Assembly (NCBI RefSeq): GCF_002854065.1
Contig: NZ_CP024147.1
Strand: one strand, 5' to 3'
DNA: 64,000 nucleotides
Source of the DNA: Escherichia coli
Lineage (GTDB): Bacteria; Pseudomonadota; Gammaproteobacteria; Enterobacterales; Enterobacteriaceae
Part shown: piece by piece, positions 3,403 to 41,873 of the stretch
Position numbering within the stretch: the first letter of the stretch is position 1
How the letters are laid out: every line of letters begins with the position of its first letter
Notes under the pieces: model-generated
What the model was told of the DNA's origin: nothing
Seen by the model: only the letters and a program-made list of their open reading frames with translations
The model's database searches: none
Program-made: the position numbers and the translations under genes

Positions 3403-4179
3403 ATGTTACGTTTCTCTGCTAATTTATCGATGTTATTTGGTGAATATGATTTTCTCGTCCGTTTTGAGAAAGCTGCGCAGTGTGGTTTTCGCGGCGTTGA
3501 ATTTATGTTCCCTTATGACTACGACATTGAAGAATTAAAACAGGTACTGGCGAGTAATAAACTCGAACATACGCTGCACAATTTACCGGCAGGTGACTGG
3601 GCGGCGGGCGAGCGGGGTATTGCCTGTATTCCTGGCCGTGAAGAAGAGTTTCGGGATGGCGTAGCAGCAGCGATTCGTTATGCTCGTGCGCTGGGTAATA
3701 AAAAAATTAACTGTCTGGTCGGTAAAACGCCGACTGGTTTCAGCAGTGAACAGATTCACGCAACGCTTGTAGAAAACCTGCGTTATGCCGCGAATATGCT
3801 GATGAAAGAAGATATTTTATTACTGATTGAACCTATTAACCATTTTGATATTCCTGGTTTCCATCTCACCGGAACTCGGCAGGCGCTGAAATTGATTGAT
3901 GATGTTGGTTGCTGCAATTTGAAAATTCAGTATGACATTTATCACATGCAGCGGATGGAAGGTGAATTAACCAACACCATGACTCAGTGGGCCGATAAAA
4001 TTGGTCACCTGCAAATTGCCGATAATCCGCATCGCGGCGAACCGGGGACCGGAGAAATTAATTATGATTATCTCTTTAAGGTAATCGAAAATTCTGACTA
4101 CAACGGTTGGGTTGGTTGTGAATATAAACCCCAAACTACCACGGAAGCCGGTTTACGCTGGATGGATCCGTACCGTTAA
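3403..4179 (+). CDS. hyi: hydroxypyruvate isomerase
   Basis: 258-aa ORF recognised as Hyi; gcl-hyi-glxR synteny. Confidence 0.9.
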   Translation: MLRFSANLSMLFGEYDFLVRFEKAAQCGFRGVEFMFPYDYDIEELKQVLASNKLEHTLHNLPAGDWAAGERGIACIPGREEEFRDGVAAAIRYARALGNKKINCLVGKTPTGFSSEQIHATLVENLRYAANMLMKEDILLLIEPINHFDIPGFHLTGTRQALKLIDDVGCCNLKIQYDIYHMQRMEGELTNTMTQWADKIGHLQIADNPHRGEPGTGEINYDYLFKVIENSDYNGWVGCEYKPQTTTEAGLRWMDPYR

Positions 4180-4278
4180 AACGTAACGCTGTTCAGGCAA
4201 TGCTTTTTTAGGCCGCTAAGTTGGCAGGGGATCGTGTTGTCTGAATCCAGGAAAAGCAAAATTTAAAAGAGGTTAATT

Positions 4279-5157
4279 ATGAAACTGGGATTTATTGGCT
4301 TAGGCATTATGGGTACACCGATGGCCATTAATCTGGCGCGTGCCGGTCATCAACTGCATGTCACAACCATTGGTCCGGTTGCTGATGAATTACTGTCACT
4401 GGGTGCCGTCAGTGTTGAAACTGCGCACCAGGTAACGGAAGCATCGGACATCATTTTTATTATGGTGCCGGATACACCACAGGTTGAAGAAGTTCTGTTC
4501 GGTGAAAATGGTTGTACCAAAGCCTCGCTGAAGGGCAAAACCATTGTTGATATGAGCTCCATTTCCCCGATTGAAACTAAACGTTTCGCTCGTCAGGTGA
4601 ATGAACTGGGCGGTGATTATCTCGATGCGCCAGTCTCCGGCGGTGAAATCGGCGCGCGTGAAGGGACGTTGTCAATTATGGTTGGCGGTGACGAAGCGGT
4701 ATTTGAACGTGTTAAACCGCTGTTTGAACTGCTCGGTAAAAATATCACCCTTGTGGGCGGTAACGGCGACGGTCAAACCTGCAAAGTGGCAAATCAGATT
4801 ATCGTAGCGCTCAATATTGAAGCGGTCTCTGAAGCTCTGCTGTTTGCTTCAAAAGCCGGTGCAGACCCGGTACGTGTGCGCCAGGCGCTGATGGGCGGCT
4901 TTGCTTCCTCACGTATTCTGGAAGTTCACGGTGAGCGCATGATTAAACGCACCTTTAATCCAGGTTTCAAAATTGCGCTGCACCAGAAAGATCTCAACCT
5001 GGCACTGCAAAGTGCGAAGACACTGGCGCTGAACCTGCCAAACACCGCGACCTGCCAGGAGTTATTTAATACCTGTGCGGCAAACGGTGGCAGCCAGTTG
5101 GATCACTCTGCGTTAGTGCAGGCGCTGGAATTAATGGCGAATCATAATCTGGCCTGA
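4279..5157 (+). CDS. glxR: tartronate semialdehyde reductase
   Basis: 292-aa ORF with N-terminal GxGxxG NAD-binding motif (GFIGLGIMG); recognised as GlxR. Confidence 0.9.
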   Translation: MKLGFIGLGIMGTPMAINLARAGHQLHVTTIGPVADELLSLGAVSVETAHQVTEASDIIFIMVPDTPQVEEVLFGENGCTKASLKGKTIVDMSSISPIETKRFARQVNELGGDYLDAPVSGGEIGAREGTLSIMVGGDEAVFERVKPLFELLGKNITLVGGNGDGQTCKVANQIIVALNIEAVSEALLFASKAGADPVRVRQALMGGFASSRILEVHGERMIKRTFNPGFKIALHQKDLNLALQSAKTLALNLPNTATCQELFNTCAANGGSQLDHSALVQALELMANHNLA

Positions 5158-5325
5158 TACCCGCAATAAAAATGGCCGATATCAGAAAATGAATCGGCCA
5201 GCAATATTAAAAAAGAAAGCAGCCAAAGATGTTGCTTCAGTATTAAAAATAATATTTTTATTTTATTTGTTCCTCATAGCTAGATTAAAACAACGTTATT
5301 CGATACGTGAAATTAAGAGGGATTT

Positions 5326-6780
5326 ATGGAACATCAGAGAAAACTATTCCAGCAACGCGGCTATAGCGAAGATCTATTGCCGAAAACGCAAAGCCAGCGG
5401 ACCTGGAAAACATTTAACTATTTTACCTTATGGATGGGTTCGGTTCATAACGTTCCCAATTATGTGATGGTCGGCGGCTTTTTTATTCTCGGCTTGTCTA
5501 CCTTTAGTATTATGCTGGCAATTATCCTCAGCGCCTTTTTCATTGCCGCGGTAATGGTATTAAACGGCGCTGCGGGCAGTAAATACGGCGTACCGTTTGC
5601 CATGATCCTGCGTGCTTCTTACGGCGTACGTGGCGCACTGTTTCCCGGATTATTAAGAGGCGGTATTGCTGCCATTATGTGGTTTGGCCTGCAATGTTAC
5701 GCGGGGTCACTGGCCTGCTTGATTCTGATTGGCAAAATCTGGCCGGGATTTTTGACTCTCGGTGGTGATTTCACTCTATTAGGCCTTTCTCTACCGGGCT
5801 TAATTACTTTCTTACTCTTCTGGCTGGTCAACGTTGGTATAGGTTTTGGCGGTGGCAAAGTTTTAAATAAATTCACTGCCATTCTTAACCCGTGCATCTA
5901 TATCGTTTTCGGCGGTATGGCGATTTGGGCGATTTCGCTGGTCGGGCTCGGTCCAATCTTTGACTACATTCCGAGCGGTATTCAGAAAGCAGAAAACAGT
6001 GGATTCTTGTTCCTGGTGGTGATTAACGCGGTAGTTGCGGTCTGGGCGGCACCGGCGGTGAGCGCATCCGACTTTACGCAAAACGCCCACTCGTTTCGTG
6101 AGCAAGCGCTGGGGCAAACGCTGGGTTTAGTTGTGGCCTATATTCTGTTTGCGGTCGCTGGGGTATGTATTATTGCCGGAGCCAGTATTCACTACGGCGC
6201 TGACACCTGGAACGTGCTGGATATTGTTCAGCGTTGGGACAGCCTGTTTGCCTCGTTCTTTGCGGTACTGGTTATTCTGATGACGACCATTTCCACTAAC
6301 GCCACCGGTAATATTATTCCGGCCGGTTATCAGATTGCTGCCATTGCACCGACAAAACTGACCTATAAAAACGGCGTACTGATTGCCAGTATTATCAGCC
6401 TGCTGATCTGCCCGTGGAAATTAATGGAAAATCAGGACAGTATTTATCTGTTCCTCGATATCATCGGCGGAATGCTGGGTCCGGTAATTGGTGTCATGAT
6501 GGCGCATTATTTTGTGGTGATGCGTGGGCAAATTAATCTTGATGAACTGTACACCGCACCTGGCGATTATAAATATTACGATAACGGTTTTAACCTCACC
6601 GCGTTTTCAGTAACTCTGGTGGCCGTTATTTTATCTCTTGGCGGTAAGTTTATTCCCTTTATGGAACCGTTATCGCGTGTTTCATGGTTTGTCGGCGTCA
6701 TCGTCGCCTTTGCGGCCTACGCCTTATTAAAGAAACGTACAACAGCAGAAAAAACAGGAGAGCAAAAAACCATAGGTTAA
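5326..6780 (+). CDS. ybbW: allantoin permease (NCS1 family transporter)
   Basis: 484-aa polytopic membrane ORF recognised as YbbW/AllW. Confidence 0.85.
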   Translation: MEHQRKLFQQRGYSEDLLPKTQSQRTWKTFNYFTLWMGSVHNVPNYVMVGGFFILGLSTFSIMLAIILSAFFIAAVMVLNGAAGSKYGVPFAMILRASYGVRGALFPGLLRGGIAAIMWFGLQCYAGSLACLILIGKIWPGFLTLGGDFTLLGLSLPGLITFLLFWLVNVGIGFGGGKVLNKFTAILNPCIYIVFGGMAIWAISLVGLGPIFDYIPSGIQKAENSGFLFLVVINAVVAVWAAPAVSASDFTQNAHSFREQALGQTLGLVVAYILFAVAGVCIIAGASIHYGADTWNVLDIVQRWDSLFASFFAVLVILMTTISTNATGNIIPAGYQIAAIAPTKLTYKNGVLIASIISLLICPWKLMENQDSIYLFLDIIGGMLGPVIGVMMAHYFVVMRGQINLDELYTAPGDYKYYDNGFNLTAFSVTLVAVILSLGGKFIPFMEPLSRVSWFVGVIVAFAAYALLKKRTTAEKTGEQKTIG

Positions 6781-12985: not shown

Positions 12986-13006
12986 AAGAAAGTCCTGTCT
13001 CAATAA

Positions 13007-14056
13007 TTATTGCGCAAAGGGATTTTTCGTTTCGTATGACGTGTTATAAAGCGCGTCGGAAATTAAATACTGGTAAATATCATCAACAATTTCGATGCCT
13101 TCGACGGCGGCTTTGCGTTGTTTAATATCCTGATCCTGTCCGGGATAATAAACCTGATTAAAACCGGGCGCGGGGGTAATGGCATTTAATTCGCGCATGG
13201 TCTGGCTAAGATGTTGACGGAATAATTCGCTGGAGGAGAAAAAGTTCGGGTTAATAACTACATGTAATTGCCCCAAATTACGCCCGGCGTGTAAATCGTC
13301 ATACATCGAACTAACCTGTCGCCCGAACGGTAAGCCGAGTAAGACGCCTGAGAGGACGTCAATCATCATCATCAGGCCATACCCTTTCGGCCCGGCTGCG
13401 GGGAGCAGAGCATGTACCGCGAACGGATCGGTTGTTGGTGCACCGTTTTTATCGACCGCCCAGGTATCCGGGATAGACATATTACGCGAGCGGGCGTCGA
13501 GCACTTTTCCCCATGCCTGTACGGTAGTCGCCATATCAAAGGTAAGGATCTCGTCGCCTTCTCCCGGCGCGGCAAAGGCCAGTGGGTTAGTACCGTAGTA
13601 AATTTCCGCGCCGCCAAACGGCACCACCATTGGATCGGACTGGCACATCGAAATGCCAATTAATCCGGCGCGGGCTGCCTGCTGCACAAAATAAGAGATT
13701 GCGCCGCTGTGACCCATCCGGCTGATACCGACCACCGCAACGCCATTTTGCTGGGCGGTTTTGATGGCATGTTCCATACCCATTTTCGCCGCGACCTGTC
13801 CGGCGGCATTGTCGGCATGTAAAATTGCCGAGCACGGCCCGGTTTCCTCAAGACGAAACTCCGGTTCGCGGTTGGTGCCGCCTTTTGAAATGCGTTCCGC
13901 GTAGTATTCCACGCGCACCGCGCCATGAGAGTGGATCCCTCTGGCATCGGCGTAAACCAATACTTCAGCCACGGTTGCAGCGTGCTCACGTTTTAACCCA
14001 GCCTGGCAGAGCTTATTCTCGATTAGCTGGTGGAGTGTTTCCCGACTGATTTTCAT
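13007..14056 (-). CDS. allD: ureidoglycolate dehydrogenase
   Basis: 349-aa ORF recognised as AllD; allE-allC-allD operon order. Confidence 0.9.
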   Translation of the reverse strand: MKISRETLHQLIENKLCQAGLKREHAATVAEVLVYADARGIHSHGAVRVEYYAERISKGGTNREPEFRLEETGPCSAILHADNAAGQVAAKMGMEHAIKTAQQNGVAVVGISRMGHSGAISYFVQQAARAGLIGISMCQSDPMVVPFGGAEIYYGTNPLAFAAPGEGDEILTFDMATTVQAWGKVLDARSRNMSIPDTWAVDKNGAPTTDPFAVHALLPAAGPKGYGLMMMIDVLSGVLLGLPFGRQVSSMYDDLHAGRNLGQLHVVINPNFFSSSELFRQHLSQTMRELNAITPAPGFNQVYYPGQDQDIKQRKAAVEGIEIVDDIYQYLISDALYNTSYETKNPFAQ

Positions 14057-14372
14057 CTGTCTTCCTTTTGAACGACGGTGTGAAGCATGACTGCAATTAA
14101 CATACAGGGAAAATATCTGGATTATGTGATCCAGACAGGCAAAAAAATATAGTTAGAATTTATTTGATAATCTTCGCGCTTTTAACCTGGTTTTTAAAAC
14201 AACCATGCTTATTAAAAAATAACGCGTAATAGTCTGGCGGTTATTTGAATTCTTTTGTTAATAATCCCTGTGTGATATTCATCACCTTATTTACTCGTTG
14301 TCATCGATACCGTAATCGCCACATTAACACTGCTCGTGCAATTGCCATGGGTGCAATTTTTAAGGAGTTGTT

Positions 14373-16040
14373 ATGAACCACGCCTTTATTAAAAAAGGGT
14401 GTTTTCAGGATTCGGTCAGTTTAATGATTATTTCACGAAAACTCAGCGAATCAGAAAATGTTGATGATGTTTCCGTAATGATGGGTACGCCCGCCAATAA
14501 AGCGTTATTAGATACCACAGGTTTCTGGCATGACGATTTTAATAACGCCACGCCGAACGATATTTGCGTGGCAATTCGTAGCGAAGCGGCGGATGCGGGG
14601 ATCGCGCAGGCGATTATGCAGCAGCTTGAAGAGGCGCTAAAACAACTGGCGCAGGGGGCAGGCAGCAGCCAGGCGTTGACGCAGGTGCGTCGCTGGGACA
14701 GTGCCTGTCAGAAATTACCCGATGCCAATCTGGCGCTGATTTCAGTGGCTGGCGAGTATGCGGCGGAGCTGGCGAATCAGGCGCTGGATCGCAACCTCAA
14801 CGTGATGATGTTCTCCGATAACGTCACGCTGGAAGATGAAATCCAACTTAAAACCCGCGCGCGGGAAAAAGGCTTGCTGGTGATGGGGCCGGACTGCGGT
14901 ACGTCGATGATTGCCGGCACGCCGCTGGCTTTTGCTAACGTGATGCCGGAAGGCAACATTGGCGTCATTGGCGCTTCCGGTACCGGGATTCAGGAGCTGT
15001 GCTCGCAGATTGCGCTGGCAGGGGAGGGAATTACTCACGCGATTGGCCTTGGCGGCCGCGACCTCAGCCGTGAAGTGGGCGGCATCAGTGCGCTAACAGC
15101 GCTGGAAATGCTCAGTGCAGACGAGAAAAGCGAAGTGCTGGCATTTGTTTCAAAACCACCTGCCGAAGCTGTGCGTCTGAAAATTGTTAATGCCATGAAA
15201 GCAACCGGCAAACCGACGGTGGCGCTGTTTTTAGGTTATACCCCGGCGGTGGCCCGCGACGAGAATGTCTGGTTTGCCTCCTCGCTGGATGAGGCCGCAC
15301 GCCTGGCTTGCCTGCTTTCACGCGTTACGGCGCGACGTAACGCGATAACGCCTGCCAGCAGCGGATTTATTTGCGGTTTGTATACCGGCGGTACGCTGGC
15401 TGCCGAAGCGGCGGGATTACTTGCCGGACACCTTGGCGTGGAAGCCGATGATGCCCATCATCACGGCATGATGCTCGACGCCGATGGTCACCAGATTATT
15501 GACCTCGGCGATGATTTCTACACCGTCGGGCGTCCCCATCCGATGATCGACCCAACCTTACGCAACCAGTTAATTGCCGATCTCGGCGCTAAACCGTCAG
15601 TGCGCGTATTGCTACTTGATGTCGTGATTGGCTTCGGCGCGACCGCCGATCCTGCCGCCTCGCTGGTAAGCGCCTGGCAAAAAGCCTGTGCTGCGCGTTC
15701 AGACAATCAACCACTGTATGCCATTGCCACGGTGACAGGCACTGAACGTGACCCGCAATGCCGCTCGCAGCAAATCGCCACGCTGGAAGATGCGGGGATT
15801 GCGGTCGTGAGTTCGCTACCGGAAGCCACCTTGCTGGCGGCAGCGTTAATTCATCCGCTCTCGCCTGCCGCACAGCAACACACACCGTCATTACTGGAAA
15901 ACGTCGCCGTGATTAACATCGGATTACGCAGTTTTGCGCTGGAGCTACAAAGCGCCAGCAAACCGGTTGTGCATTACCAATGGTCGCCAGTCGCCGGCGG
16001 CAATAAAAAACTGGCTCGTTTATTAGAACGTTTGCAATAA
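14373..16040 (+). CDS. fdrA: FdrA, succinyl-CoA synthetase alpha-like protein (proposed oxamate transcarbamylase subunit)
   Basis: 555-aa ORF recognised as FdrA. Confidence 0.85.
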   Translation: MNHAFIKKGCFQDSVSLMIISRKLSESENVDDVSVMMGTPANKALLDTTGFWHDDFNNATPNDICVAIRSEAADAGIAQAIMQQLEEALKQLAQGAGSSQALTQVRRWDSACQKLPDANLALISVAGEYAAELANQALDRNLNVMMFSDNVTLEDEIQLKTRAREKGLLVMGPDCGTSMIAGTPLAFANVMPEGNIGVIGASGTGIQELCSQIALAGEGITHAIGLGGRDLSREVGGISALTALEMLSADEKSEVLAFVSKPPAEAVRLKIVNAMKATGKPTVALFLGYTPAVARDENVWFASSLDEAARLACLLSRVTARRNAITPASSGFICGLYTGGTLAAEAAGLLAGHLGVEADDAHHHGMMLDADGHQIIDLGDDFYTVGRPHPMIDPTLRNQLIADLGAKPSVRVLLLDVVIGFGATADPAASLVSAWQKACAARSDNQPLYAIATVTGTERDPQCRSQQIATLEDAGIAVVSSLPEATLLAAALIHPLSPAAQQHTPSLLENVAVINIGLRSFALELQSASKPVVHYQWSPVAGGNKKLARLLERLQ

Positions 16041-16049
16041 GGGGTTCCC

Positions 16050-17309
16050 ATGTTTACATCAGTGGCGCAAGCCAATGCTGCGGTTATCGAACAAATTCGT
16101 CGCGCTCGTCCACACTGGCTGGATGTGCAACCGACTTCTTCACTTATCAGCGAACTAAACCAGGGCAAAACACTGCTTCACGCCGGGCCGCCAATGCGCT
16201 GGCAGGAGATGACCGGACCCATGAAAGGGGCGTGCGTGGGCGCATGTCTGTTCGAAGGTTGGGCGAAAGATGAAGCGCAGGCGCTGGCAATACTGGAGCA
16301 GGGGGAAGTGAACTTCATTCCTTGTCACCATGTGAATGCCGTCGGGCCAATGGGCGGCATTACTTCTGCCAGTATGCCGATGCTGGTGGTCGAGAATGTG
16401 ACCGACGGCAACCGGGCGTACTGCAACCTCAACGAAGGTATCGGCAAAGTGATGCGTTTTGGCGCTTACGGCGAAGATGTCCTGACTCGCCATCGCTGGA
16501 TGCGCGATGTGTTAATGCCAGTATTAAGCGCGGCGCTGGGGCGCATGGAGCGCGGTATCGATCTTACCGCGATGATGGCGCAGGGCATTACCATGGGCGA
16601 TGAGTTCCATCAACGCAATATTGCTTCCTCAGCACTGTTAATGCGTGCGCTGGCCCCACAAATTGCTCGCCTCGATCATGATAAACAGCACATCGCGGAA
16701 GTGATGGATTTCCTCAGCGTGACCGATCAGTTCTTCCTCAACCTCGCGATGGCTTACTGCAAGGCGGCGATGGATGCTGGCGCGATGATCCGCGCAGGCA
16801 GCATCGTCACGGCAATGACCCGCAACGGCAATATGTTCGGGATTCGGGTAAGCGGGCTGGGCGAACGCTGGTTTACTGCGCCTGTAAACACTCCGCAAGG
16901 TCTGTTTTTCACCGGCTTCTCGCAGGAGCAGGCGAACCCGGATATGGGCGATAGCGCGATTACCGAAACCTTTGGTATCGGAGGTGCGGCAATGATCGCA
17001 GCGCCTGGCGTAACGCGCTTTGTCGGTGCGGGTGGCATGGAAGCGGCCAGGGCGGTATCTGAAGAGATGGCGGAAATTTACCTTGAACGCAATATGCAGT
17101 TGCAGATCCCAAGCTGGGATTTTCAGGGCGCGTGCCTGGGACTGGACATTCGTCGCGTGGTAGAAACCGGCATTACGCCACTCATCAATACCGGTATCGC
17201 CCATAAAGAGGCGGGGATCGGGCAGATTGGCGCAGGCACCGTGCGGGCACCGCTGGCGTGCTTTGAACAGGCGCTGGAAGCACTGGCTGAAAGCATGGGT
17301 ATTGGTTGA
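16050..17309 (+). CDS. ylbE: DUF1116 protein YlbE, apparently intact here
   Basis: 419-aa uninterrupted ORF recognised as YlbE. Confidence 0.8.
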
Positions 17310-17319
17310 GAAACGCGCA

Positions 17320-18135
17320 ATGACGATCATCCATCCTCTGCTTGCCAGTAGTAGCGCACCGAATTATCGCCAGTCCTGGCGGTTAGCGGGAGTGTGGCGG
17401 CGGGCGATTAACCTGATGACGGAAAGCGGCGAACTGTTAACGCTGCATCGTCAGGGTAGTGGTTTCGGCCCCGGAGGATGGGTGCTTCGCCGCGCGCAAT
17501 TCGATGCGTTATGCGGTGGATTATGCGGCAATGAACGACCGCAGGTTGTGGCTCAAGGTATTCGCCTCGGGCGTTTCACGGTTAAACAGCCACAGCGTTA
17601 TTATTTGCTGCGTATTACGCCGCCTGCGCATCCTCAACCGCTTGCAGCTGCATGGATGCAACGCGCGGAGGAAACCGGGCTTTTCGGGCCACTGGTGTTG
17701 GCGGCAAGCGATCCGCTGCCTGCTGAATTACGCCAGTTTCGTCACTGTTTTCAGGCCGCGCTCAATGGCGTTAAGACCGACTGGCGGCACTGGCTGGGTA
17801 AAGGCCCCGGATTAACGCCAAGTCATGATGACACGCTGAGCGGAATGCTGCTGGCGGCCTGGTATTATGGTGCTTTAGATGCGCGCTCCGGTTGCCAGTT
17901 TTTTGCCTGTTCCGACAATCTTCAACTCGTTACCACAGCGGTGAGCGTCAGTTATTTACGTTATGCCGCGCAAGGATATTTCGCCTCGCCACTCCTGCAC
18001 TTTGTTCATGCTCTGAGTTGCCCGAAACGTACCGCTGTTGCGATTGATTCGCTGCTGGCGCTGGGGCATACGTCAGGGGCAGATACACTGCTGGGGTTCT
18101 GGCTTGGTCAACAATTATTACAAGGAAAACCATGA
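17320..18135 (+). CDS. ylbF: YlbF family protein
   Basis: 271 aa from [11 protein letters not shown]; track ORF extended upstream start rejected because it overlaps ylbE. Confidence 0.8.
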
Positions 18136-19025
18136 AAACACTGGTTGTAGCTCTTGGGGGCAATGCCTTGCTTCAGCGCGGTGAGGCGCTGACGGCAGAA
18201 AATCAATATCGCAATATCGCCAGTGCTGTACCCGCGCTGGCACGCCTGGCCCGTTCTTATCGGCTGGCGATTGTTCACGGCAACGGGCCGCAGGTGGGGC
18301 TGCTGGCGTTACAGAATCTGGCGTGGAAAGAGGTAGAACCGTATCCGCTGGATGTGCTGGTGGCGGAAAGCCAGGGGATGATTGGCTATATGCTGGCGCA
18401 GAGTTTGAGCGCACAGCCGCAGATGCCGCCTGTCACGACGGTGCTGACGCGCATTGAGGTTTCGCCTGATGATCCGGCGTTTTTGCAGCCAGAGAAATTT
18501 ATTGGTCCGGTTTATCAGCCAGAAGAACAAGAGGCACTGGAAGCGGCTTACGGCTGGCAGATGAAACGTGATGGTAAATATTTGCGCCGGGTGGTGGCGT
18601 CTCCGCAACCGCGTAAAATTCTCGACAGCGAAGCCATCGAGTTGTTGCTCAAAGAGGGGCATGTGGTGATTTGCAGTGGCGGCGGCGGTGTGCCTGTGAC
18701 GGATGACGGAGCAGGGAGTGAAGCAGTGATTGATAAAGATCTCGCCGCTGCGTTGCTCGCCGAGCAAATTAACGCCGATGGACTGGTGATCCTCACCGAT
18801 GCTGATGCGGTATATGAAAACTGGGGAACGCCGCAGCAACGTGCCATTCGCCATGCCACACCGGATGAGTTAGCGCCATTTGCCAAAGCCGATGGTTCGA
18901 TGGGGCCGAAGGTAACGGCGGTGAGTGGTTATGTCAGAAGCCGTGGTAAACCCGCGTGGATTGGGGCGTTATCGCGAATTGAAGAGACGCTGGCGGGCGA
19001 AGCGGGGACCTGTATTTCGCTGTAG
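18132..19025 (+). CDS. ybcF: carbamate kinase-like protein
   Basis: 297-aa ORF recognised as YbcF (ArcC-like); start overlaps ylbF stop (ATGA). Confidence 0.85.
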
Positions 19026-19029
19026 TGAT

Positions 19030-19150
19030 GAGAGCATCCGGCAATCGGTGCACCATGCCTGATGCGACGCTTGACGCGTCTTATCAGGCCTACAATGGGT
19101 ACCGGAGCGGTAAGCCGGATAAGGCGTTCACGCCGCATCCGGCAATCAAA
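19030..19150. repeat. REP/BIME palindromic units
   Basis: GCCTGATGCGACGCTT...GCGTCTTATCAGGCCTAC and GCCGGATAAGGCG...CGCATCCGGCA imperfect palindromes typical of enterobacterial REP. Confidence 0.5.
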
Positions 19151-19161
19151 TGAGCACCAGG

Positions 19162-20229
19162 TTAACTGAACTTACTCTGTGCCCACATCACACCGCTGGC
19201 ATACTCCGGCGGCAGTAGCGGGATTAAGGCTTCCAGCGTCGCGGACAGACGCGATGTGTCGCTGTCGGTCAAATTCAGATGCCCCACTTTACGGCCCGGA
19301 CGGACTTCTTTGTCGTACCAGTGCAGATGCACCAGCGGCAGTTTCAGCCAGTCATAATTCACATCGCTACCAATCAGGTTGATCATCACCGACGGACTAT
19401 TTACTACCGGTTGCGGTAACGGCAGATCGGTAATCGCCCGCAGATGCAGCTCAAACTGGCTGATGCTGGCACCGTTTTGTGTCCAGTGACCGCTGTTATG
19501 CACACGCGGAGCCAGTTCGTTGATCAGCAGACCTTGCGGGGTGACAAAACACTCCATCGCCATCACGCCCACATAGCCCAGCTCCTGCATAATCGCCGAC
19601 AGCATCTCTTCGGCTTGCGCTTGCTGCTGCGCATTGGCCTGCGGAAAAGCGACGCTGGTGCGCAAAATACCGTCCTGATGCAGGTTATGCGTCAGCGGAT
19701 AAAACACGGTGCTGCCATCAAAACCGCGCGCGCCAACCAGCGACACTTCACCAGAGAAGTTTATGCCCTGCTCGACTATACATTCGCCGTAGCATTCAGC
19801 CGGTAACTGTTCGGTTTCATCGGCGCGTAAACGCCATTGACCGCGACCGTCATAGCCACCAGTGCGACGCTTAACAATCGCCAGCTCACCTAAACGATCA
19901 AACACCGCAGGCCACTCGCTGCGATCGGCAAGTAACTGCCACGGTGCGGTTGGCAGGTGGAGCTTGTCGAAAAGCTGCTTCTGAGTCAGACGGTCGGCAA
20001 TAATCGGGAACACATCGCGGTTCACAAAGGCCGGATGGCGCGCCAGTTCGCGGGTTAATGCGGTTTCCGGCCAGCGTTCTATCTCAGCGGTAATCACGCT
20101 TTGTTGAAAAGGCACCGCCGCCGGTTCAGCGTCCAGCCCGACTGGCCAGACAGCAATGCCTAACGGTTCGCCTGCCTGACGCAGCATACGGCCTAACTGC
20201 CCGTTACCGAGGACGCAAACCTGTTTCAT
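19162..20229 (-). CDS. purK: N5-carboxyaminoimidazole ribonucleotide synthase
   Basis: 355-aa ATP-grasp ORF recognised as PurK. Confidence 0.92.
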
Positions 20230-20735
20230 GCCGCACCTCGCGGGTCCGGGTTTTCCAGCACTTCGTCGGTCTGGGCTTTGCGCCAGTCATTCAGACGCTG
20301 GTGCAGTTCTTTATCATGAGTCGCAAGAATTTGTGCTGCCAGTAACGCCGCGTTTGCCGCGCCAGCTTTACCAATCGCCAGCGTACCCACCGGAATGCCG
20401 CGCGGCATTTGTACGATGGAGTAGAGGCTATCGACACCGCTCAGTGCGGCGCTCTGTACTGGCACGCCCAGCACTGGCACCAGCGTTTTGGCGGCAATCA
20501 TGCCTGGCAGGTGCGCTGCGCCGCCTGCGCCCGCAATAATCACCTGATAACCGTTCTCTTCGGCACTTTCGGCGAAGCTGAATAGTTTATCGGGGGTGCG
20601 GTGAGCAGAAACCACTTCAACGTGGTGCGGGACATTCAGGATTTCGAAGATTTCGGCGGCGAACTGCATGGTAGCCCAGTCGCTTTTGGACCCCATCACG
20701 ATGGCGACACGCGCCGGATTATTGCGGGAAGACAT
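20226..20735 (-). CDS. purE: N5-CAIR mutase
   Basis: 169 aa from [19 protein letters not shown]; overlaps purK start. Confidence 0.92.
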
Positions 20736-27331: not shown

Positions 27332-29941
27332 ATGAAAATACCCACTACTACGGATATTCCGCAGAGGTATACCTGGTGTCTGGCCGGAATTTGTTATTCA
27401 TCTCTTGCCATTTTACCCTCCTTTTTAAGCTATGCGGAAAGTTATTTCAACCCGGCATTTTTATTAGAGAATGGCACATCCGTTGCTGATTTATCGCGCT
27501 TTGAGAGAGGTAATCATCAACCTGCGGGCGTGTATCGGGTGGATCTCTGGCGTAATGATGAGTTCATTGGTTCACAGGATATCGTATTTGAATCGACAAC
27601 AGAAAATACAGGTGATAAATCAGGTGGGTTAATGCCCTGTTTTAACCAGGTATTCCTTGAACGAATTGGCCTTAATAGCAGTGCATTTCCCGAGTTAGCC
27701 CAGCAGCAAAACAATAAATGCATCAATTTACTGAAAGCTGTACCTGATGCCACAATTAACTTTGATTTTGCAGCGATGCGCCTGAACATCACGATTCCTC
27801 AGATAGCGTTGTTGAGTAGCGCTCACGGTTACATTCCGCCTGAAGAGTGGGATGAAGGTATTCCTGCTTTACTCCTGAATTATAATTTCACCGGTAACAG
27901 AGGTAATGGTAACGATAGCTATTTTTTTAGTGAGCTCAGCGGGATTAATATTGGCCCGTGGCGTTTACGCAACAATGGTTCCTGGAACTATTTTCGCGGA
28001 AATGGATATCATTCAGAACAGTGGAATAATATTGGCACCTGGGTACAGCGCGCCATTATTCCGCTGAAAAGTGAACTGGTAATGGGAGACGGCAATACAG
28101 GAAGTGATATTTTCGATGGCGTTGGATTTCGTAGTGTACGGCTTTACTCTTCCGATAATATGTATCCTGATAGCCAGCAGGGGTTTGCCCCAACGGTACG
28201 TGGGATTGCCCGTACGGCGGCCCAGCTAACGATTCGGCAAAATGGTTTTATTATCTATCAAAGCTATGTTTCCCCCGGCGCTTTTGAAATTACAGATTTG
28301 CACCCGACATCTTCAAATGGCGATCTGGACGTCACCATCGACGAACGCGATGGTAATCAGCAGAATTACACAATTCCGTATTCAACAGTGCCAATTTTAC
28401 AACGCGAAGGGCGTTTCAAATTTGACCTGACGGCGGGCGATTTTCGTAGCGGTAATAGTCAGCAATCATCGCCTTTCTTTTTTCAGGGCACGGCACTCGG
28501 CGGTTTACCACAGGAATTTACTGCCTACGGCGGGACGCAATTATCTGCCAATTACACCGCCTTTTTATTAGGGCTGGGGCGCAACCTCGGGAACTGGGGC
28601 GCAGTGTCGCTGGATGTGACCCATGCGCGCAGCCAGTTAGCCGACGACAGTCGTCATGAGGGGGATTCCATTCGCTTCCTCTATGCGAAATCGATGAACA
28701 CCTTCGGCACCAATTTTCAGTTAATGGGTTACCGCTATTCGACACAAGGTTTTTATACCCTTGATGATGTTGCGTATCGTCGAATGGAGGGGTACGAATA
28801 TGATTACGATTACGACGGTGAGCATCGCGATGAACCGATAATCGTGAATTACCACAATTTACGCTTTAGCCGTAAAGACCGTTTGCAGTTAAATATTTCA
28901 CAATCACTTAATGACTTTGGCTCGCTTTATATCTCTGGTACCCATCAAAAATACTGGAATACTTCGGATTCAGATACCTGGTATCAGGTGGGGTATACCA
29001 GCAGCTGGGTTGGCATCAGTTATTCGCTCTTATTTTCGTGGAATGAATCTGTAGGGATCCCCGATAACGAACGTATTGTCGGACTTAATGTTTCAGTGCC
29101 TTTCAATGTTCTGACCAAACGTCGCTACACCCGGGAAAATGCGCTCGACCGCGCTTATGCCTCCTTTAACGCCAACCGTAACAGCAACGGGCAAAATAGC
29201 TGGCTGGCAGGCGTTGGTGGGACCTTACTGGAAGGCCACAACCTGAGTTATCACGTAAGCCAGGGCGATACTTCGAACAATGGGTACACGGGCAGCGCCA
29301 CGGCAAACTGGCAGGCCGCTTACGGTACGCTGGGGGTCGGGTATAACTACGACCGCGATCAACATGACGTTAACTGGCAGCTGTCTGGTGGTGTGGTCGG
29401 ACATAAAAATGGCATAACGCTGAGCCAGCCTTTAGGGGATACCAATGTTTTGATTAAAGCGCCTGGCGCAGGCGGTGTACGCATTGAAAATCAAACTGGC
29501 ATTTTAACCGACTGGCGCGGCTATGCGGTGATGCCGTATGCCACGGTTTATCGGTATAACCGTATCGCGCTTGATACCAATACGATGGGGAATTCCATCG
29601 ATGTTGAAAAAAATATTAGCAGCGTTGTGCCGACGCAAGGCGCGTTGGTTCGTGCCAATTTTGATACCCGCATAGGCGTGCGGGCGCTCATTACCGTTAC
29701 CCAGGGCGGAAAACCGGTGCCGTTTGGATCACTGGTACGGGAAAACAGTACCGGAATAACCAGTATGGTGGGTGATGACGGGCAAGTTTATTTAAGTGGT
29801 GCGCCATTGTCTGGTGAATTACTGGTTCAGTGGGGAGACGGCGCGAACTCACGCTGCATTGCGCACTATGTATTGCCGAAGCAAAGCTTACAGCAAGCCG
29901 TCACAGTTATTTCGGCAGTTTGCACACATCCTGGCTCATAA
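27332..29941 (+). CDS. sfmD: fimbrial outer membrane usher
   Basis: 869-aa usher ORF, FimD-like. Confidence 0.9.
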
Positions 29942-29953
29942 AGGAAATTATCA

Positions 29954-30961
29954 ATGAAGATAATCTGCAGATTATTATTGGCGATGGCATGTTTGTGTCT
30001 GGCAAACATATCCTGGGCTACTGTTTGTGCAAATAGTACTGGCGTAGCAGAAGATGAACACTATGATCTCTCAAATGTCTTTAATAGCACCAATAACCAG
30101 CCAGGGCAGATTGTTGTTTTACCGGAAAAATCCGGCTGGGTAGGTGTGTCAGCAATTTGTCCACCCGGCACGCTGGTGAATTATACATACCGTAGTTATG
30201 TCACTAACTTTATTGTTCAGGAAACTATCGATAATTATAAATATATGCAATTAAATGATTATCTATTAGGTGCGATGAGTCTGGTTGATAGTGTGATGGA
30301 TATTCAATTTCCCCCGCTAAATTATATTCGTATGGGAACAGATCCTAACGTTTCGCAAAACCTTCCGTTCGGGGTGATGGATTCTCGTTTGATATTTCGT
30401 TTAAAGGTTATTCGGCCCTTTATTAACATGGTGGAGATCCCCAGACAGGTGATGTTTACCGTGTATGTGACATCAACGCCTTACGATCCGTTGGTTACAC
30501 CTGTTTATACCATTAGTTTTGGTGGCCGGGTTGAAGTACCGCAAAACTGCGAATTAAATGCCGGGCAGATTGTTGAATTTGATTTTGGTGATATCGGCGC
30601 ATCGTTATTTAGTGCGGCAGGGCCGGGTAATCGACCTGCTGGTGTCATGCCGCAAACCAAGAGCATTGCGGTCAAATGTACGAATGTTGCTGCGCAGGCT
30701 TATTTAACAATGCGTCTGGAAGCCAGTGCCGTTTCTGGTCAGGCGATGGTGTCGGACAATCAGGATTTAGGTTTTATTGTCGCCGATCAGAACGATACGC
30801 CGATCACGCCTAACGATCTCAATAGCGTTATTCCTTTCCGTCTGGATGCAGCTGCGGTAGCCAATGTCACACTTCGCGCCTGGCCTATCAGTATTACCGG
30901 TCAAAAACCGACCGAAGGGCCGTTTAGCGCGCTGGGGTATTTACGCGTCGATTATCAATGA
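29954..30961 (+). CDS. sfmH: fimbrial adhesin-like subunit
   Basis: 335-aa ORF with signal peptide; FimH-like position after usher. Confidence 0.8.
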   Translation: MKIICRLLLAMACLCLANISWATVCANSTGVAEDEHYDLSNVFNSTNNQPGQIVVLPEKSGWVGVSAICPPGTLVNYTYRSYVTNFIVQETIDNYKYMQLNDYLLGAMSLVDSVMDIQFPPLNYIRMGTDPNVSQNLPFGVMDSRLIFRLKVIRPFINMVEIPRQVMFTVYVTSTPYDPLVTPVYTISFGGRVEVPQNCELNAGQIVEFDFGDIGASLFSAAGPGNRPAGVMPQTKSIAVKCTNVAAQAYLTMRLEASAVSGQAMVSDNQDLGFIVADQNDTPITPNDLNSVIPFRLDAAAVANVTLRAWPISITGQKPTEGPFSALGYLRVDYQ

Positions 30962-35175: not shown

Positions 35176-35559
35176 ATGCGTGATATTCAGATGGTTCTTG
35201 AGCGTTGGGGAGCGTGGGCGGCTAATAATCATGAAGATGTGACCTGGTCGTCCATTGCCGCCGGTTTTAAGGGATTAATTCCTTCAAAAGTAAAATCTCG
35301 CCCGCAATGTTGTGACGATGACGCGATGATCATTTGCGGGTGCATGGCCCGTCTGAAAAAGAACAACAGCGATTTGCACGATTTATTAGTAGATTATTAT
35401 ATAGTCGGTATGACATTCATGTCACTGGCAGGTAAGCATTGCTGCTCTGATGGTTATATCGGGAAAAGGTTACAAAAGGCTGAGGGCATAATTGAAGGGA
35501 TGTTAATGGCATTAGATATCCGGTTAGAGATGGATATCGTTGTTAATAACTCTAATTAA
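35176..35559 (+). CDS. quuD: late gene antiterminator Q
   Basis: 127 aa from [18 protein letters not shown] with zinc-binding cysteines; phage Q family. Confidence 0.85.
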
Positions 35560-35589
35560 TACGCCAATTATTTACTAAAAGTTATTAAA

Positions 35590-35740
35590 AATGGGGCGTT
35601 GAAGCGCCCCCAAAAATAAAGGGTAATATATAACAGAAGGTTTGTATAGTTAGAAGCAAGGTTGTGCTTCTAAAGGAAGTGGCTTGAGGGAGCCACTTAT
35701 ATGTTGGGGAGGCAAAGCCTCCCACAACATATCTTTTAGT
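35590..35740. terminator. cluster of four stem-loops between convergent quuD and nmpC
   Basis: GGGGCG-ttgaa-CGCCCC; GAAGCA-aggttg-TGCTTC; AAGTGGCT-tgaggg-AGCCACTT; GTTGGGGAGGC-aaa-GCCTCCCACAAC followed by T-run. Confidence 0.4.
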
Positions 35741-35747
35741 AATCAAA

Positions 35748-36830
35748 TTAGAACTGGTAAACCATACCTACAGCAACGATATCATCGGTAGCAACGCCAG
35801 ATGCTTTCGTGAAATCGCTCTTATCAATCAGGTTGATTTTGTAGTCAACAAAAGTGGACATATTTTTGTTGAAGTAATAGGTTGCACCTACATCAACATA
35901 TTCAACCAGGTCCTGATCACCCCAAACACCCAAGTCTTTTCCTTTAGAATGCAGGTAAGCAACGGATGGACGCAGGCCGAAGTCGAACTGATATTGTGCA
36001 ACAGCTTCGAAGTTTTGTGCTTTGTTGGCAATATGGTTATTACCAAAAACAGTCATGTTCTGGGTTTCAGAATAGGTGGTGGCCAGATAGATGTTGTTCG
36101 CATCATATTTCAGACCAGCTGCCCATACTTCAGCATTTTGACCAGAAGCATTCAGACCGTTGTTACCGTAGATAACCTGATTATTAGTGCGATCAGATTT
36201 AGCATAGGTTGCACCCACGCCGAATCCTTCATACTCATAAGTAGTTGAGAAACCGAAACCATCGCCATTAGCTTCAGTTACTTCATTTCGGTCATTTTTG
36301 CCCTGATACTGAGCTGCAAAGTTCAGGCCATCAACCAGACCAAAGAAGTCGTTGTTACGATAAGTTGCAACACCTGTGGTGCGACCAGTCATGAACACAT
36401 CTGTTTGGGTCCAGGTATCGCCACCGAATTCTGGCAGAACGTCAGTCCACGCACCGATGTCGTATGCTACACCGTAGTTACGGCCGTAATCGATTGAGCC
36501 GTAGTCACCGAATTTCAGGCCAGCGAAGGCAAGACGGGTTTTATCTTTGGAGGAACCTTGAGATTCAGCGCGGTTGCCTTTGAATTCATATTCCCACTGA
36601 CCGAAACCAGTCAGTTGATCGTTGATTTGGGTTTCACCTTTGAAGCCAAGACGGGCATAAGTAGTATCACCATCATCTGCATCATTAGAGGAGAAGTAGT
36701 GCTTAGCATTAACTTTCCCGTACAGATCCAGCTTGTTACTGTCTTTATTATAAATTTCAGCTGCCTGAGCAGACATCGCCATCAGTACTGATGCAGCTAC
36801 AGCAGAAATTGCCACTGTTAATTTTTTCAT
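35748..36830 (-). CDS. nmpC: OmpC/OmpF-family outer membrane porin, intact
   Basis: 360-aa ORF with signal peptide [23 protein letters not shown] and C-terminal ...VYQF; recognised as NmpC. Confidence 0.9.
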
Positions 36831-37258
36831 CGTGAGCCCTTTTTTTTGAACTATTATTAAAAAATGATGTCACTGCGCGATAAATATTCATCTAATCAAT
36901 GTGATTATTTCAAGATGTAAGTTTTGGTTTCTCGTTTAATTTGTGAAGTAGATCTCTATTTTTATCTGAACTTTTTTCTATCGAATCCTATTCATGGCTC
37001 TTGGCTGAATAAAAATAAATCTATTAGCCAATTTATATTAATGGCTGTTATTTATAAGTGCTCTATAATTTGAAGGTTCAATTTAAATTGGCTAAAAATA
37101 ACGCTGGAAATTATTTGTTGGTTATTTGTTGAGATTTTCTTATGTATTTGTAGTGGTGTTTTCAATACTCGGTAGCATTCTCGCAAATATCATTTAGTGG
37201 TTTACGTACGTAAAAAATTGGTTATGCTGTTAAGAGTGGTTACTTCGTTACACAGCTT

Positions 37259-37290
37259 AAACCCGCCGTCGAGCGGGTTTTTCCATTTTT
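37259..37290 (+). terminator. tR'-like rho-independent terminator upstream of lysis genes
   Basis: ACCCGC-cgtcga-GCGGGT followed by TTTTT; about 115 nt upstream of holin start. Confidence 0.55.
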
Positions 37291-37403
37291 TGAGTCTCGA
37301 TATTAGCTGATAACCCAATACCTGAGTTATTCACTGACTCCGAGTCTGTTACGTTTCGTAGTATTCCCTCAATTTACACCCGCTTTGTCTGCGAGGTGGG
37401 GTT

Positions 37404-37619
37404 ATGAAATCCATGGATAAGTTAACAACGGGTGTCGCCTATGGCACCTCAGCAGGTAGTGCCGGGTACTGGTTTTTACAGCTGCTCGATAAAGTCACGC
37501 CCTCACAGTGGGCAGCAATAGGTGTGCTGGGTAGCCTGGTATTTGGCCTGCTGACGTACCTGACAAACCTTTATTTCAAGATTAAAGAAGATAAGCGCAA
37601 GGCTGCGAGAGGTGAATAA
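37404..37619 (+). CDS. essD: class II holin (phage 21 S-like)
   Basis: 71-aa ORF with two TM segments and charged C-terminus. Confidence 0.85.
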
Positions 37620-38116
37620 TGCCTCCATCATTACGAAAAGCTGTTGCTGCTGCTATTGGTGGCGGGGCTATTGCTATAGCATCTGTGTTAATCACTGGCC
37701 CAAGTGGTAACGATGGTCTGGAAGGTGTGAGACATAATCCTTACAAAGACATAGTTGGTGTATGGACTGTATGTTACGGGCATACAGGAAAAGACATCAT
37801 TCCCGGTAAAACGTATACCGAAGCAGAGTGCAAAGCCCTCCTGAATAAAGACCTTGCCACTGTCGCCAGACAAATTAACCGGTACATCAAAGTCGATATA
37901 CCGGAAACAACGCGCGGCGCTCTTTACTCGTTCGTCTACAACGTGGGTGCTGGCAATTTCAGAACATCGACGCTTCTTCGCAAAATAAACCAGGGTGATA
38001 TTAAAGGCGCATGTGATCAGCTACGGCGCTGGACATACGCTGGCGGTAATCAATGGAAAGGACTGATGACTCGCCGTGAGATTGAGCGTGAAGTCTGTTT
38101 GTGGGGGAAACAATGA
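37619..38116 (+). CDS. rrrD: phage lysozyme (endolysin)
   Basis: 165-aa ORF with T4-lysozyme-like motifs; ATG overlaps holin stop. Confidence 0.9.
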
Positions 38117-38571
38117 GCAGAGTAACCGCGATTATCTCCGCTCTGGTTATCTGCATCATCGTCTGCCTGTCATTGGCTGTTAATCATTACCGTGATAACG
38201 CAATCGCCTACAAAGAGCAGCGCGATAACAAGGCCAGTGAACTGGAGAAGGCGAACGCCACCATCGCTGACATGCGGAAGCGTCAACGTGATGTAGCAGA
38301 ACTCGACGCAAGATACACAAAGGAGCTTGCTGATGCTAACGCGACTATCGAAAGTCTCCGTGCTGATGTTTCTGCTGGGCGTAAGCGCCTGCAAGTCGCC
38401 GCCACCTGTGCAAAGTCAACGACCGGAGCCAGCGGCATGGGCGATGGAGAAAGCCCAGGACTTACAGCAGATGCTGAACTCAATTATTACCGTCTCCGAA
38501 GTGGAATCGACAAGATAACCGCGCAGGTTAACTACCTGCAGGAATACATCAGGACGCAATGCCTGAAATAA
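38113..38571 (+). CDS. rzpD: i-spanin Rz
   Basis: 153 aa from [17 protein letters not shown]; N-terminal TM then coiled coil; lambda Rz-like. Confidence 0.85.
38327..38518 (+). CDS. rzoD: o-spanin Rz1 lipoprotein embedded in +1 frame of Rz
   Basis: 63-aa ORF with lipobox LLGVSAC and proline-rich region, nested in Rz. Confidence 0.6.
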
Positions 38572-38603
38572 TTTTTTTGCAAATCACAAAGTCCATTTAA
38601 TGA

Positions 38604-38627
38604 GCCTCGCGATGCGGGGCTTTTTTT
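38604..38627 (+). terminator. rho-independent terminator after lysis cassette
   Basis: GCCTCGC-gat-GCGGGGC hairpin followed by TTTTTTT. Confidence 0.55.
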
Positions 38628-38866
38628 ACATCTGAATTTCACAGCGCATCTCACGCGCATATTACATCACCCGAGCCTTTCAGAAAGTTGAGCCTGAGAA
38701 CTGCCGTATATGGTGGCGACCATCTCGGGGCGGCTTTTCTGTGAGACAGGCTCACTTTCTAAAAGGTAAAGACGCTATGAACCAATTAGAAGAAAAGCTT
38801 CAAAGAATGATTTCCTTATACAAGGAAGATAACTGCCAAAAAGTTCCTTAAAACATCGCAGAGTTA

Positions 38867-39265
38867 ATGGAATTGGCAAGTGAATTTTCTGGCATGCTTA
38901 AGTCGTCAGGTGTTCGGTCAGCGTTCTTTGTTGAAATGCTGATGCACGGCGGACTTATGGCAACAATGAGACGTGTAATGGAAGACCAGAGAAAAGAACC
39001 TCCTCAGGTATACGTTTTGTCATCGAAGAAAACTGGGCTAACCAAAATTGGGTATTCATCCAACATTCCACAACGCATCAAATCGCTTGGCAACTCTGGA
39101 CCAGACTGCTTGAAGCTTGAGTGCCTGATCCCTGGTGGAAGAGAAACTGAAAACATGCTTCATCGCAAATTTGCCGCAAAGAGAAAGCACGGTGAATGGT
39201 TCGCCCTGTCCAAGGATGACATTGAGGGATTGAAATCTGTAGCGATTACTTCTGATGGCTATTAA
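38867..39265 (+). CDS. T5orf172/GIY-YIG-like domain protein
   Basis: 132-aa ORF; motif VYVL..TGLTKIGYS..RIKSL...HRKF...HGEWFAL; in frame with a 24-codon upstream ORF separated by one TAA. Confidence 0.45.
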   Translation: MELASEFSGMLKSSGVRSAFFVEMLMHGGLMATMRRVMEDQRKEPPQVYVLSSKKTGLTKIGYSSNIPQRIKSLGNSGPDCLKLECLIPGGRETENMLHRKFAAKRKHGEWFALSKDDIEGLKSVAITSDGY

Positions 39266-39943
39266 TGCTTGTTTAGAGCAATTTTCATAACAACTCTTCA
39301 TTACAAAGCCCATCTACTGGTGGGCTTGATAATGAAACCGTGATTTACATCCCCACAATCCGGGTATGTAAAAGATAGTTCAGGCGAGAACGGATTTAAC
39401 TAAATCTGTGCGCCACCAGTTAACGGCAGTACCACGAAACAACCCAAGCCAGTAAGTGGGGAAATAACACCGGCAGCCACTGAAAGATGAACCTCCTGCC
39501 TTATGGCAAAAAAGATTCTTTGTGGTGGCGGACTGATGGAAAGACATCCTAATTTCAGCCAAACATTGAAGGAGTTGTTATGTCAGCAGAAGGTTTCAAT
39601 AACCCATCAAAATTCCGGGATGAGTGGGATAGCAGCGTAAAGAGTAAGTGATGCCATCACAAAAGCCATTCCCTACAGAGTGGCTTTGATAATGGCTTAT
39701 ACCCTACACGGGATAACTTAACTGATATCCTTTTTAAAGGATAAAGGTATTCAAGCCTGACACATCATGCGCTGTATCGTCGCCGTATTCCCGTATTAAC
39801 AGAGACCGTAGCCCGACGGGGAACTCCTTCTGCGCGAGTGTGCGGGAATAATCAAAAACGATGCACACCGGGGTTACCGGGTACACATATTTCATCATGC
39901 CAGCGAGTCCGGTTCTGGCACGGAAGAAACCGGACGTTATGAT

Positions 39944-40354: not shown

Positions 40355-40411
40355 TGTAGTACCTTCCATGTGATATGAAGGTACCTAGTCTGCACGATTA
40401 TCTAAATTGCT

Positions 40412-40645: not shown

Positions 40646-40819
40646 GAGGTTGTCCCGTATTCAGTGTCGCTGATTTGTATTGTCTGAAGTTGTTTTTACG
40701 TTAAGTTGATGCAGATCAATTAATATGATACCTGCGTCATAATTGATTATTTGACGTGGTTTGATGGCGTAGATGCACGTTGTGACATGCAGATGATAAT
40801 TATTATCATTTTGCGGGTC

Positions 40820-41030: not shown

Positions 41031-41033
41031 ACA

Positions 41034-41858: not shown

Positions 41859-41873
41859 TCCGGAGAGTCAGCG

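Follow-up and report, generated by a model that had tools for sequence, protein, structure and literature searches.

Positions 14373-19025 of the window (the whole stretch of E. coli DNA that was analysed, 64,000 nucleotides long) very probably hold the allFGHK operon of the species, an intact ylbE being the normal state in E. coli, K-12 included, and the K-12 'pseudogene' reducing to one G missing from a superseded MG1655 reference and from a W3110 record of 2006. The four genes (Table 1) lie in the order F-G-H-K, divergent from allDCE and inside the allantoin cluster (ORF table and K-12 comparison); in the K-12 annotation, allD opens the divergent allDCE operon. The layout described in the sequence-only reading, which was made from the letters without database searches, stands: the ORF table and the junction sequences give gaps of 9 nt between fdrA and ylbE (16041-16049) and 10 nt between ylbE and ylbF (17310-17319), a 4-nt overlap of the ylbF stop with the ybcF start (ATGA, 18132-18135), an AT-rich divergent spacer toward allD, and a ylbE frame free of interruption. 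For ylbF, the longest ORF in the table begins at TTG 17227, as against the annotated ATG. This structure is real yet not unusual, with spacing as usually met inside bacterial operons.

Table 1. Positions of the allFGHK operon and associated features in the window
Feature	Position	Strand	Description
allD (ureidoglycolate dehydrogenase)	13007-14056	-	349 aa; 99.1% identity to K-12 AllD
allD/fdrA divergent regulatory spacer	14057-14372	.	316 bp; GC 35.8% versus 56.6% for the operon
Counterpart of AllS-bound allFp -203/-144	14170-14229	+	51/60 bases as in K-12; position from PMC12535856
Counterpart of ArcA-P-bound allFp -142/-83	14231-14290	+	57/60 bases as in K-12; position from PMC12535856
fdrA = allF	14373-16040	+	Oxamic transcarbamylase subunit, succinyl-CoA-synthetase-alpha-like fold
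ylbE = allG	16050-17309	+	Oxamic transcarbamylase subunit; 419 aa, no internal stop
GGGGG run, ylbE nt 252-256	16301-16305	+	Site of the historical K-12 'frameshift'; alignment of window, MG1655 v3, W3110, BW25113 and DH10B
ylbF = allH	17320-18135	+	Oxamic transcarbamylase subunit; 271 aa from annotated ATG
ybcF = allK	18132-19025	+	Catabolic carbamate kinase; start overlaps ylbF stop
REP/BIME repeats	19026-19161	.	Between convergent ybcF and purK; 136 bp versus 194 bp in the K-12 alignment

We compared the locus with its K-12 MG1655 counterpart (fdrA-ylbE-ylbF-ybcF, b0518-b0521), which encodes an oxamic transcarbamylase (EC 2.1.3.5) and a catabolic carbamate kinase. Gene order, gene lengths, junctions (9, 10, -4), the 316-bp spacer and the neighbours allDCE and purK are the same in both. 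The encoded proteins are 98.4-99.7% identical, with nine residue differences in AllF (98.4% identity), two in AllG, four in AllH (98.5% identity) and one in AllK; at the nucleotide level the four genes together carry 73 synonymous or missense substitutions and the spacer carries 13, and there is no structural difference. Downstream of ybcF the window has one REP unit fewer than K-12, and this REP/BIME stretch gives sub-threshold matches to the REP-derived Rfam family naRNA4; the Rfam scan of 13000-20500 otherwise returned a single spurious eukaryotic hit. From allA to ybcF, each of the 16 genes has its full length and encodes a protein 98-100% identical to its K-12 counterpart, and the order is collinear with K-12 from allA to purE; allS sits immediately beyond the window edge. 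Of 5,426 complete genomes of E. coli, 5,407 contain the 5.1-kb locus.

The sequence-only reading had taken ylbE for a frameshift pseudogene in K-12 and had proposed, on that basis, that this strain may have the functional version. The contrast with K-12 is not borne out. NC_000913.3, the current MG1655 reference, has ylbE (b4572) annotated as an intact gene of 419 aa, and the gene is likewise intact in BW25113, in DH10B and in a second MG1655 assembly (NZ_CP032667). Alignment of the window allele with NC_000913.3 reveals 13 nucleotide and two amino acid differences (A29T, E38Q) and no indel, so the frameshift difference that the claim depended on is not supported; the two alleles come close to the identity that the sequence-only reading had named as refuting it, and the window carries GGGGG at the site in question, as does current MG1655. 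A four-G form is found in W3110 record NC_007779.1 (2006), whose ylbE differs only by one G of the run and by a silent change at nt 114, and older papers treat ylbE in the MG1655 reference as a pseudogene: PMC5460176 and PMC4404585, in which strains were set against the older reference, place the 4-G frameshift allele in the older MG1655 sequence and list the gene there as a pseudogene. The ylbE of NC_007779.1 and of U00096.2 is the same gene in the same context, with the same flanks to the G run, and has GGGG where the window has GGGGG and A at nt 114 where the window has G. When we simulated the deletion of one G from the run, a stop arose at codon 87, 5' of the AllG domain, which is the stop met in the GGGG records.

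How widespread is this allele? Among the matches listed, from 5,417 genomes matched, the exact 4-G allele occurs in four records (W3110, CIT, LIM and CAR), a count of this exact allele; the other genomes listed have the 5-G form, like the window. An intact gene is a property of the current K-12 reference and of almost all E. coli. CIT, LIM and CAR are MG1655-derived records in which the gene, with GGGG, is flagged 'frameshifted', as it is in W3110, and the old-reference length and coordinates of these records suggest that they are products of a reference-guided consensus. Taken at face value, the W3110 RefSeq record, these three and the pseudogene listings of the older papers would favour a K-12 in which ylbE is frameshifted and non-functional, this strain retaining a functional ancestral allele, with anaerobic allantoin use expected to differ between them. 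We regard this as highly improbable: the intact K-12 assemblies named above speak against it, the three additional records would be accounted for by their coordinates, and the EcoGene 3.0 paper reports a small number of minor errors in the U00096.2 sequence, with correction due in U00096.3 (PMC3531124). Wild-type MG1655, moreover, makes oxamate from allantoin and requires allG to do so (PMC11326118); since an allG deletion phenotype could be obtained in MG1655, K-12 has a working allG allele, and for MG1655 the frameshift account has already been refuted by published genetics.

That the genes form a single operon beside allDCE, serving an anaerobic oxalurate/oxamate branch with carbamoyl phosphate and ATP as its products, had also been proposed from the sequence, and experiments in K-12 MG1655 support it (PMC9843812, PMC11326118, PMC12535856). 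The four genes are co-transcribed in MG1655, as determined by RT-PCR, and carbamate kinase kinetics have been measured on purified K-12 YbcF (PMC9843812). The purified AllF-AllG-AllH complex of K-12 has OXTCase activity, and MG1655 deleted for allF, allG or allH makes almost no oxamate or none at all (PMC11326118); expression of the K-12 allF operon needs both AllS and ArcA (PMC12535856). The functional reading of the operon is correct, but it is already published for K-12. By likeness to K-12, transcription of the operon in the window would start in the AT-rich spacer common to it and the divergent allDCE and would follow the K-12 pattern, in which AllS activates during growth on allantoin as nitrogen source and ArcA does so under anaerobiosis. 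AllD would oxidise ureidoglycolate to oxalurate, the substrate of the operon; the three-subunit AllF-AllG-AllH enzyme would convert oxalurate and phosphate to oxamate and carbamoyl phosphate, the oxamate being excreted as a dead end; and AllK would make ATP by passing the phosphate on to ADP, leaving carbamate to fall apart into NH3 and CO2.

The closest genome (CUWW06, operon match 100%) bears an IS5 within allW, which encodes the allantoin transporter, and an IS1 in fimD/sfmD; by BLAST, both insertions are absent from the window. We considered broken allantoin uptake in this strain and rejected it, allW being intact in the window. Nothing within the window was found to contradict the best explanation of the locus.

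Protein family matches agree with these assignments. FdrA scores 1040 bits against NCBIfam NF004760 (cut-off 433) over its full length (1-555), matches PDB entry 3DMY ('Protein fdrA') and has the wild-type residue at D296. YbcF scores 620.9 bits against the carbamate kinase equivalog NF006926 (cut-off 416) and also matches TIGR00746 (arcC). YlbE and YlbF drew no family from NCBIfam and were assigned with Pfam: residues 87-302 of YlbE match PF06545 (AllG, formerly DUF1116; E = 1.1e-97, model positions 1-215 of 215), and residues 158-263 of YlbF match PF11392 (AllH, formerly DUF2877; E = 8e-29). A homologue of YlbE is present in the PDB (3CLQ). ATCase (PyrB), OTCase (ArgF/ArgI) and YgeW share with AllFGH the type of reaction, in which a carbamoyl group moves reversibly between carbamoyl phosphate and an acceptor that is an amine or an amide, and the catabolic OTCase of arginine deiminase operons is likewise paired with a carbamate kinase for ATP (PMC11326118, PMC9843812). 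AllFGH differs from these classical transcarbamylases in having no sequence relationship to them and in needing three different gene products; no carbamoyl-phosphate-binding or Asp/Orn-binding domain of the OTCase/ATCase kind is among the NCBIfam or Pfam hits of AllF, AllG and AllH.

FdrA could instead be read as an acyl-CoA synthetase of the succinyl-CoA synthetase type, which is what its PGAP name ('acyl-CoA synthetase FdrA') implies and what the resemblance of residues ~114-290 to succinyl-CoA synthetase alpha subunits, where they align with the CoA-binding/ligase-CoA region of the SucD family, might lead one to expect. Unlike SucD, however, FdrA has an additional N-terminal and a long C-terminal region, it falls far under the cut-offs of the succinyl-CoA synthetase models (53.6 versus 336 bits), and a simple pattern search did not find a GHAG-type phosphohistidine motif in it. 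The AllFGH reaction as described uses no CoA: the purified AllF-AllG-AllH complex interconverts oxamate plus carbamoyl phosphate and oxalurate plus Pi, with no CoA listed in the assay mix (PMC11326118). A synthetase role is thus very hard to sustain for FdrA, and we retain its assignment as a transcarbamylase subunit.

The spacer between allD and fdrA is exactly as long as its K-12 counterpart, and an alignment of nine strains shows invariant flanks and a polymorphic centre. EMSA in K-12 placed AllS on allFp -203/-144 and phosphorylated ArcA on allFp -142/-83 (PMC12535856), and, of the 13 substitutions that set the spacer apart from K-12, 12 sit inside the counterparts of these two fragments. 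The putative AllS-binding counterpart differs from K-12 at 9 of 60 bases, and its core, TTTTAACCTG(A/G)TTTTTAAAACAAC, is conserved across the nine strains; in the putative ArcA-binding counterpart the block GGTTATTTGAATTCTTTTGTTAATAAT is invariant in the same strains. We rejected the idea that these differences are special to the window, as the nine-strain alignment identifies them as species-wide polymorphism between conserved core blocks. The spacer allele of the window is common (613 records at least 99% identical).

Spacings such as 9 nt, 10 nt and -4 nt are usual in operons. Translational coupling of the four genes, as the sequence-only reading suggested, would be consistent with this spacing, and compact junctions would probably help to balance the supply of the three subunits. 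Such junctions might instead reflect genome compaction only, each cistron being translated from its own ribosome-binding site without coupling, an account that their ordinariness would favour and that we hold to be possible, if somewhat doubtful. Shine-Dalgarno-like motifs lie 5-7 nt 5' of the start codons of fdrA (AAGGAG), ylbE (AAGGGG, which runs into the fdrA stop) and ybcF (AAGGAA), and K-12 deletions of allF and allH are at least partially complemented in trans (PMC11326118). Against independent translation, the Shine-Dalgarno-like sequence of ylbF, 10 nt past the end of ylbE, is a weak one, and the ybcF start lies within the end of ylbF (ATGA); in addition, allG in trans failed to complement the K-12 allG deletion, and plasmids carrying allFG or allGH gave back only 7-16% of the oxamate (PMC11326118), a result that fits polarity or a need for stoichiometry and is not proof of coupling. 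The conserved junction lengths might point further, to junctions kept since AllF, AllG and AllH must arise side by side on one mRNA (by coupling or co-translational assembly) for the enzyme to be active. Such a requirement would explain both the failure of allG in trans and the mere 7-16% of oxamate obtained with two-gene plasmids, and it would make the rare haplotype of the window (nine AllF and four AllH substitutions) one natural variant of the assembly; we think this unlikely. A consensus scan found promoter- and terminator-like sites within the operon to be no more numerous than in shuffled sequence, and the scan is therefore uninformative on internal promoters or terminators; in the window, support for a single four-gene transcript comes from the compact junctions.

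Work on K-12 from 2021 to 2025 characterised the allFGHK operon together with its enzymes and regulators, and the Pfam names AllG and AllH already exist. The idea that ylbE is a pseudogene in K-12 is out of date and lives on in the W3110 record of 2006 and in a few others that keep the coordinates of the old reference; comparisons against such 4-G records will keep yielding a false 'restored gene' signal, and an intact ylbE is not to be flagged as a strain-specific gain.

Aligned base by base with the K-12 MG1655 locus, as the sequence-only reading had proposed for confirming a frameshift there, ylbE has equal length, 13 nt substitutions and no indel, with two amino-acid changes (A29T and E38Q). 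In the current MG1655 reference (NC_000913.3), ylbE (b4572) is annotated as an uninterrupted CDS of 1260 nt, and one intact YlbE protein, WP_000495367.1, is common to BW25113, DH10B and an independent MG1655 assembly. The supposed contrast, in which the gene is frameshifted in K-12 and intact here, is thus wrong. The W3110 record (NC_007779.1), in which ylbE has 1259 nt and is flagged 'frameshifted', departs in the alignment from the remaining K-12 records at two ylbE positions and no others: nt 114 is A instead of G, and the run at nt 252-256 is GGGG instead of GGGGG (the 4-G allele), which leads to a stop at codon 87, just ahead of the AllG domain. Resequencing papers list the same pair of differences relative to the old MG1655 reference, as 547,694 A>G and 547,831 +G (PMC5460176) or as a silent substitution at position 114 and an insertion at base 253 (PMC4404585). 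The few discrepancies reported in that reference, U00096.2, were described by EcoGene 3.0 as sequence errors, independently confirmed and due for correction in U00096.3 (PMC3531124), and the ylbE+ allele appears in the literature for MG1655 stocks and NCM3722.

To count the 4-G allele we used an 81-nt probe bearing it, which matched 5,417 genomes; among the records listed only four matched exactly (W3110 and three MG1655 derivatives), and the remainder aligned with a one-base gap. In length and coordinates the three MG1655-derived records coincide with the old MG1655 reference, an agreement that suggests an error passed down with the record and not a biological difference. Together, the record comparison and the probe count indicate that intact ylbE is the norm in E. 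coli, K-12 included. The three derivatives are CIT, LIM and CAR, annotated 'frameshifted' as is the W3110 RefSeq record; the 4-G gene lies at 3582-4840 in the W3110 locus (L003, NC_007779.1) and at 1291-2549 in L007 (NZ_CP026028.1).

The four-gene layout (fdrA-ylbE-ylbF-ybcF, or allF-allG-allH-allK) was borne out in both coordinates and junctions. The gaps are 9 nt (fdrA/ylbE) and 10 nt (ylbE/ylbF), and the ylbF stop is fused with the ybcF start in ATGA (18132-18135). For ylbF, the longest ORF would begin at TTG 17227 (302 aa) and share 83 nt with ylbE; the annotated ATG is at 17320.

Coordinates of the operon and its surroundings in the window
Feature	Coordinates	Detail	Basis
allD	13007-14056	minus strand	
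allD-fdrA spacer	14057-14372	316 bp	
fdrA	14373-16040		ORF table and junction sequences
ylbE	16050-17309	419 aa, no internal stops	ORF table and junction sequences
ylbF	17320-18135	271 aa from annotated ATG	ORF table and junction sequences
ybcF	18132-19025		ORF table and junction sequences
REP/BIME repeats	19026-19161	3' of ybcF, up to convergent purK	sub-threshold Rfam naRNA4 matches
Prophage region	33572-59628	intD, rusA, quuD neighbours	
IS1 copy	43853-44620	inside prophage region	

Shine-Dalgarno-like motifs precede fdrA, ylbE and ybcF, with a weak one at ylbF. This weak site, the ATGA overlap of ylbF and ybcF, and the poor complementation of allG in trans in K-12 make translational coupling across the allFGHK junctions plausible; independent translation of each cistron is a live alternative. 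The tight junctions would probably aid balanced subunit production. FdrA codon 2 (14376-14378) reads AAC (Asn) in the window, where K-12 and seven further strains from a diverse sample have ATC (Ile).

Because allD, allC and allE all lie on the minus strand, the spacer upstream of fdrA is a divergent control region. At 35.8% GC it is AT-rich beside the operon (56.6%) and the window as a whole (49.6%). Of its 316 positions, 13 are different in K-12, and 12 of those lie within the two EMSA fragments (14170-14290) that are bound by AllS and ArcA in K-12. When nine diverse strains are aligned, the central stretch proves polymorphic species-wide, with both flanks and the blocks resembling AllS and ArcA cores conserved; on this alignment, the differences may be read as ordinary variation. 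The only sigma-70-like consensus matches on the + strand of the spacer (14097-14125 and 14132-14159), no more numerous than in shuffled sequence, lie upstream of both fragments, an odd placing for activator sites if either is the real promoter.

Family searches place all four proteins. FdrA scores 1040 bits against NCBIfam NF004760 (cut-off 433) and also matches the solved structure 3DMY; YlbE matches PF06545 (E = 1.1e-97), a family that today bears the name 'Oxamate carbamoyltransferase subunit AllG', and has a homologue of solved structure, 3CLQ; YlbF matches PF11392, 'subunit AllH' (E = 8e-29); and YbcF scores 620.9 bits against NF006926, a carbamate kinase equivalog with a cut-off of 416. 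The searches with FdrA, YlbE and YlbF found no resemblance to ATCase- or OTCase-type transcarbamylases, and FdrA bears a weak likeness to succinyl-CoA synthetase alpha subunits, far under the cut-offs of those families.

Of 5,426 complete E. coli genomes, 5,407 contain the 5.1-kb locus at a coverage of at least 80%. From allA to purE the window is collinear with MG1655, and the 18 proteins (PurK, PurE and the 16 of the allA-ybcF stretch) are 98-100% identical to K-12 over their full lengths, except for the last residue of PurK. The operon haplotype (14057-19160) is rare: just 5 of 5,446 records share 99% identity or more over its whole length. Taken by itself, the 316-bp spacer allele is common, with 613 records at that level. 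This combination points to a recombinational mosaic, a pattern usual for E. coli. Beyond ybcF, the spacer to purK has one REP unit fewer than K-12 (136 versus 194 bp).

The operon matches at 100% in one strain only, CUWW06. In this closest relative, IS5 sits in allW, the allantoin transporter gene, and IS1 in fimD/sfmD. Both insertions are absent here (window 5117-6420 and 29574-30378; CUWW06 locus L002, 6170-7364 and 30518-31285), and CUWW06 is not the strain from which the window comes; allW is confirmed intact in the window. CUWW06 also has no counterparts of window 35547-43852 and 44621-59628, losses that are apparently IS1-associated deletions reaching into cusC.

All published functional work on the locus was performed in K-12. 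Oxamate formation was first linked to fdrA through a lab-evolved D296Y variant and an fdrA deletion (PMC8550087); residue D296 is wild type here. RT-PCR detected every two-, three- and four-gene transcript, and YbcF, once purified, proved to be a catabolic carbamate kinase (PMC9843812). Deletion of allF, allG or allH abolishes or nearly abolishes oxamate production and diverts flux to oxalate, and the purified AllF-AllG-AllH complex catalyses the oxamate/carbamoyl phosphate reaction (PMC11326118). Expression needs anaerobic conditions and allantoin and depends on both AllS, which binds fragment -203/-144, and ArcA, which binds -142/-83 (PMC12535856). These K-12 transcripts, enzymes and regulators show that the anaerobic oxalurate/oxamate pathway proposed from the sequence was right; the role of allFGHK is already known, and by now textbook-level for this locus. 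The K-12 contrast was the sole claim able to make the window special. The window agrees with K-12 in its genes, their order, the junctions and the putative promoter cores, all intact, and we infer that the operon works in this strain as it does there.
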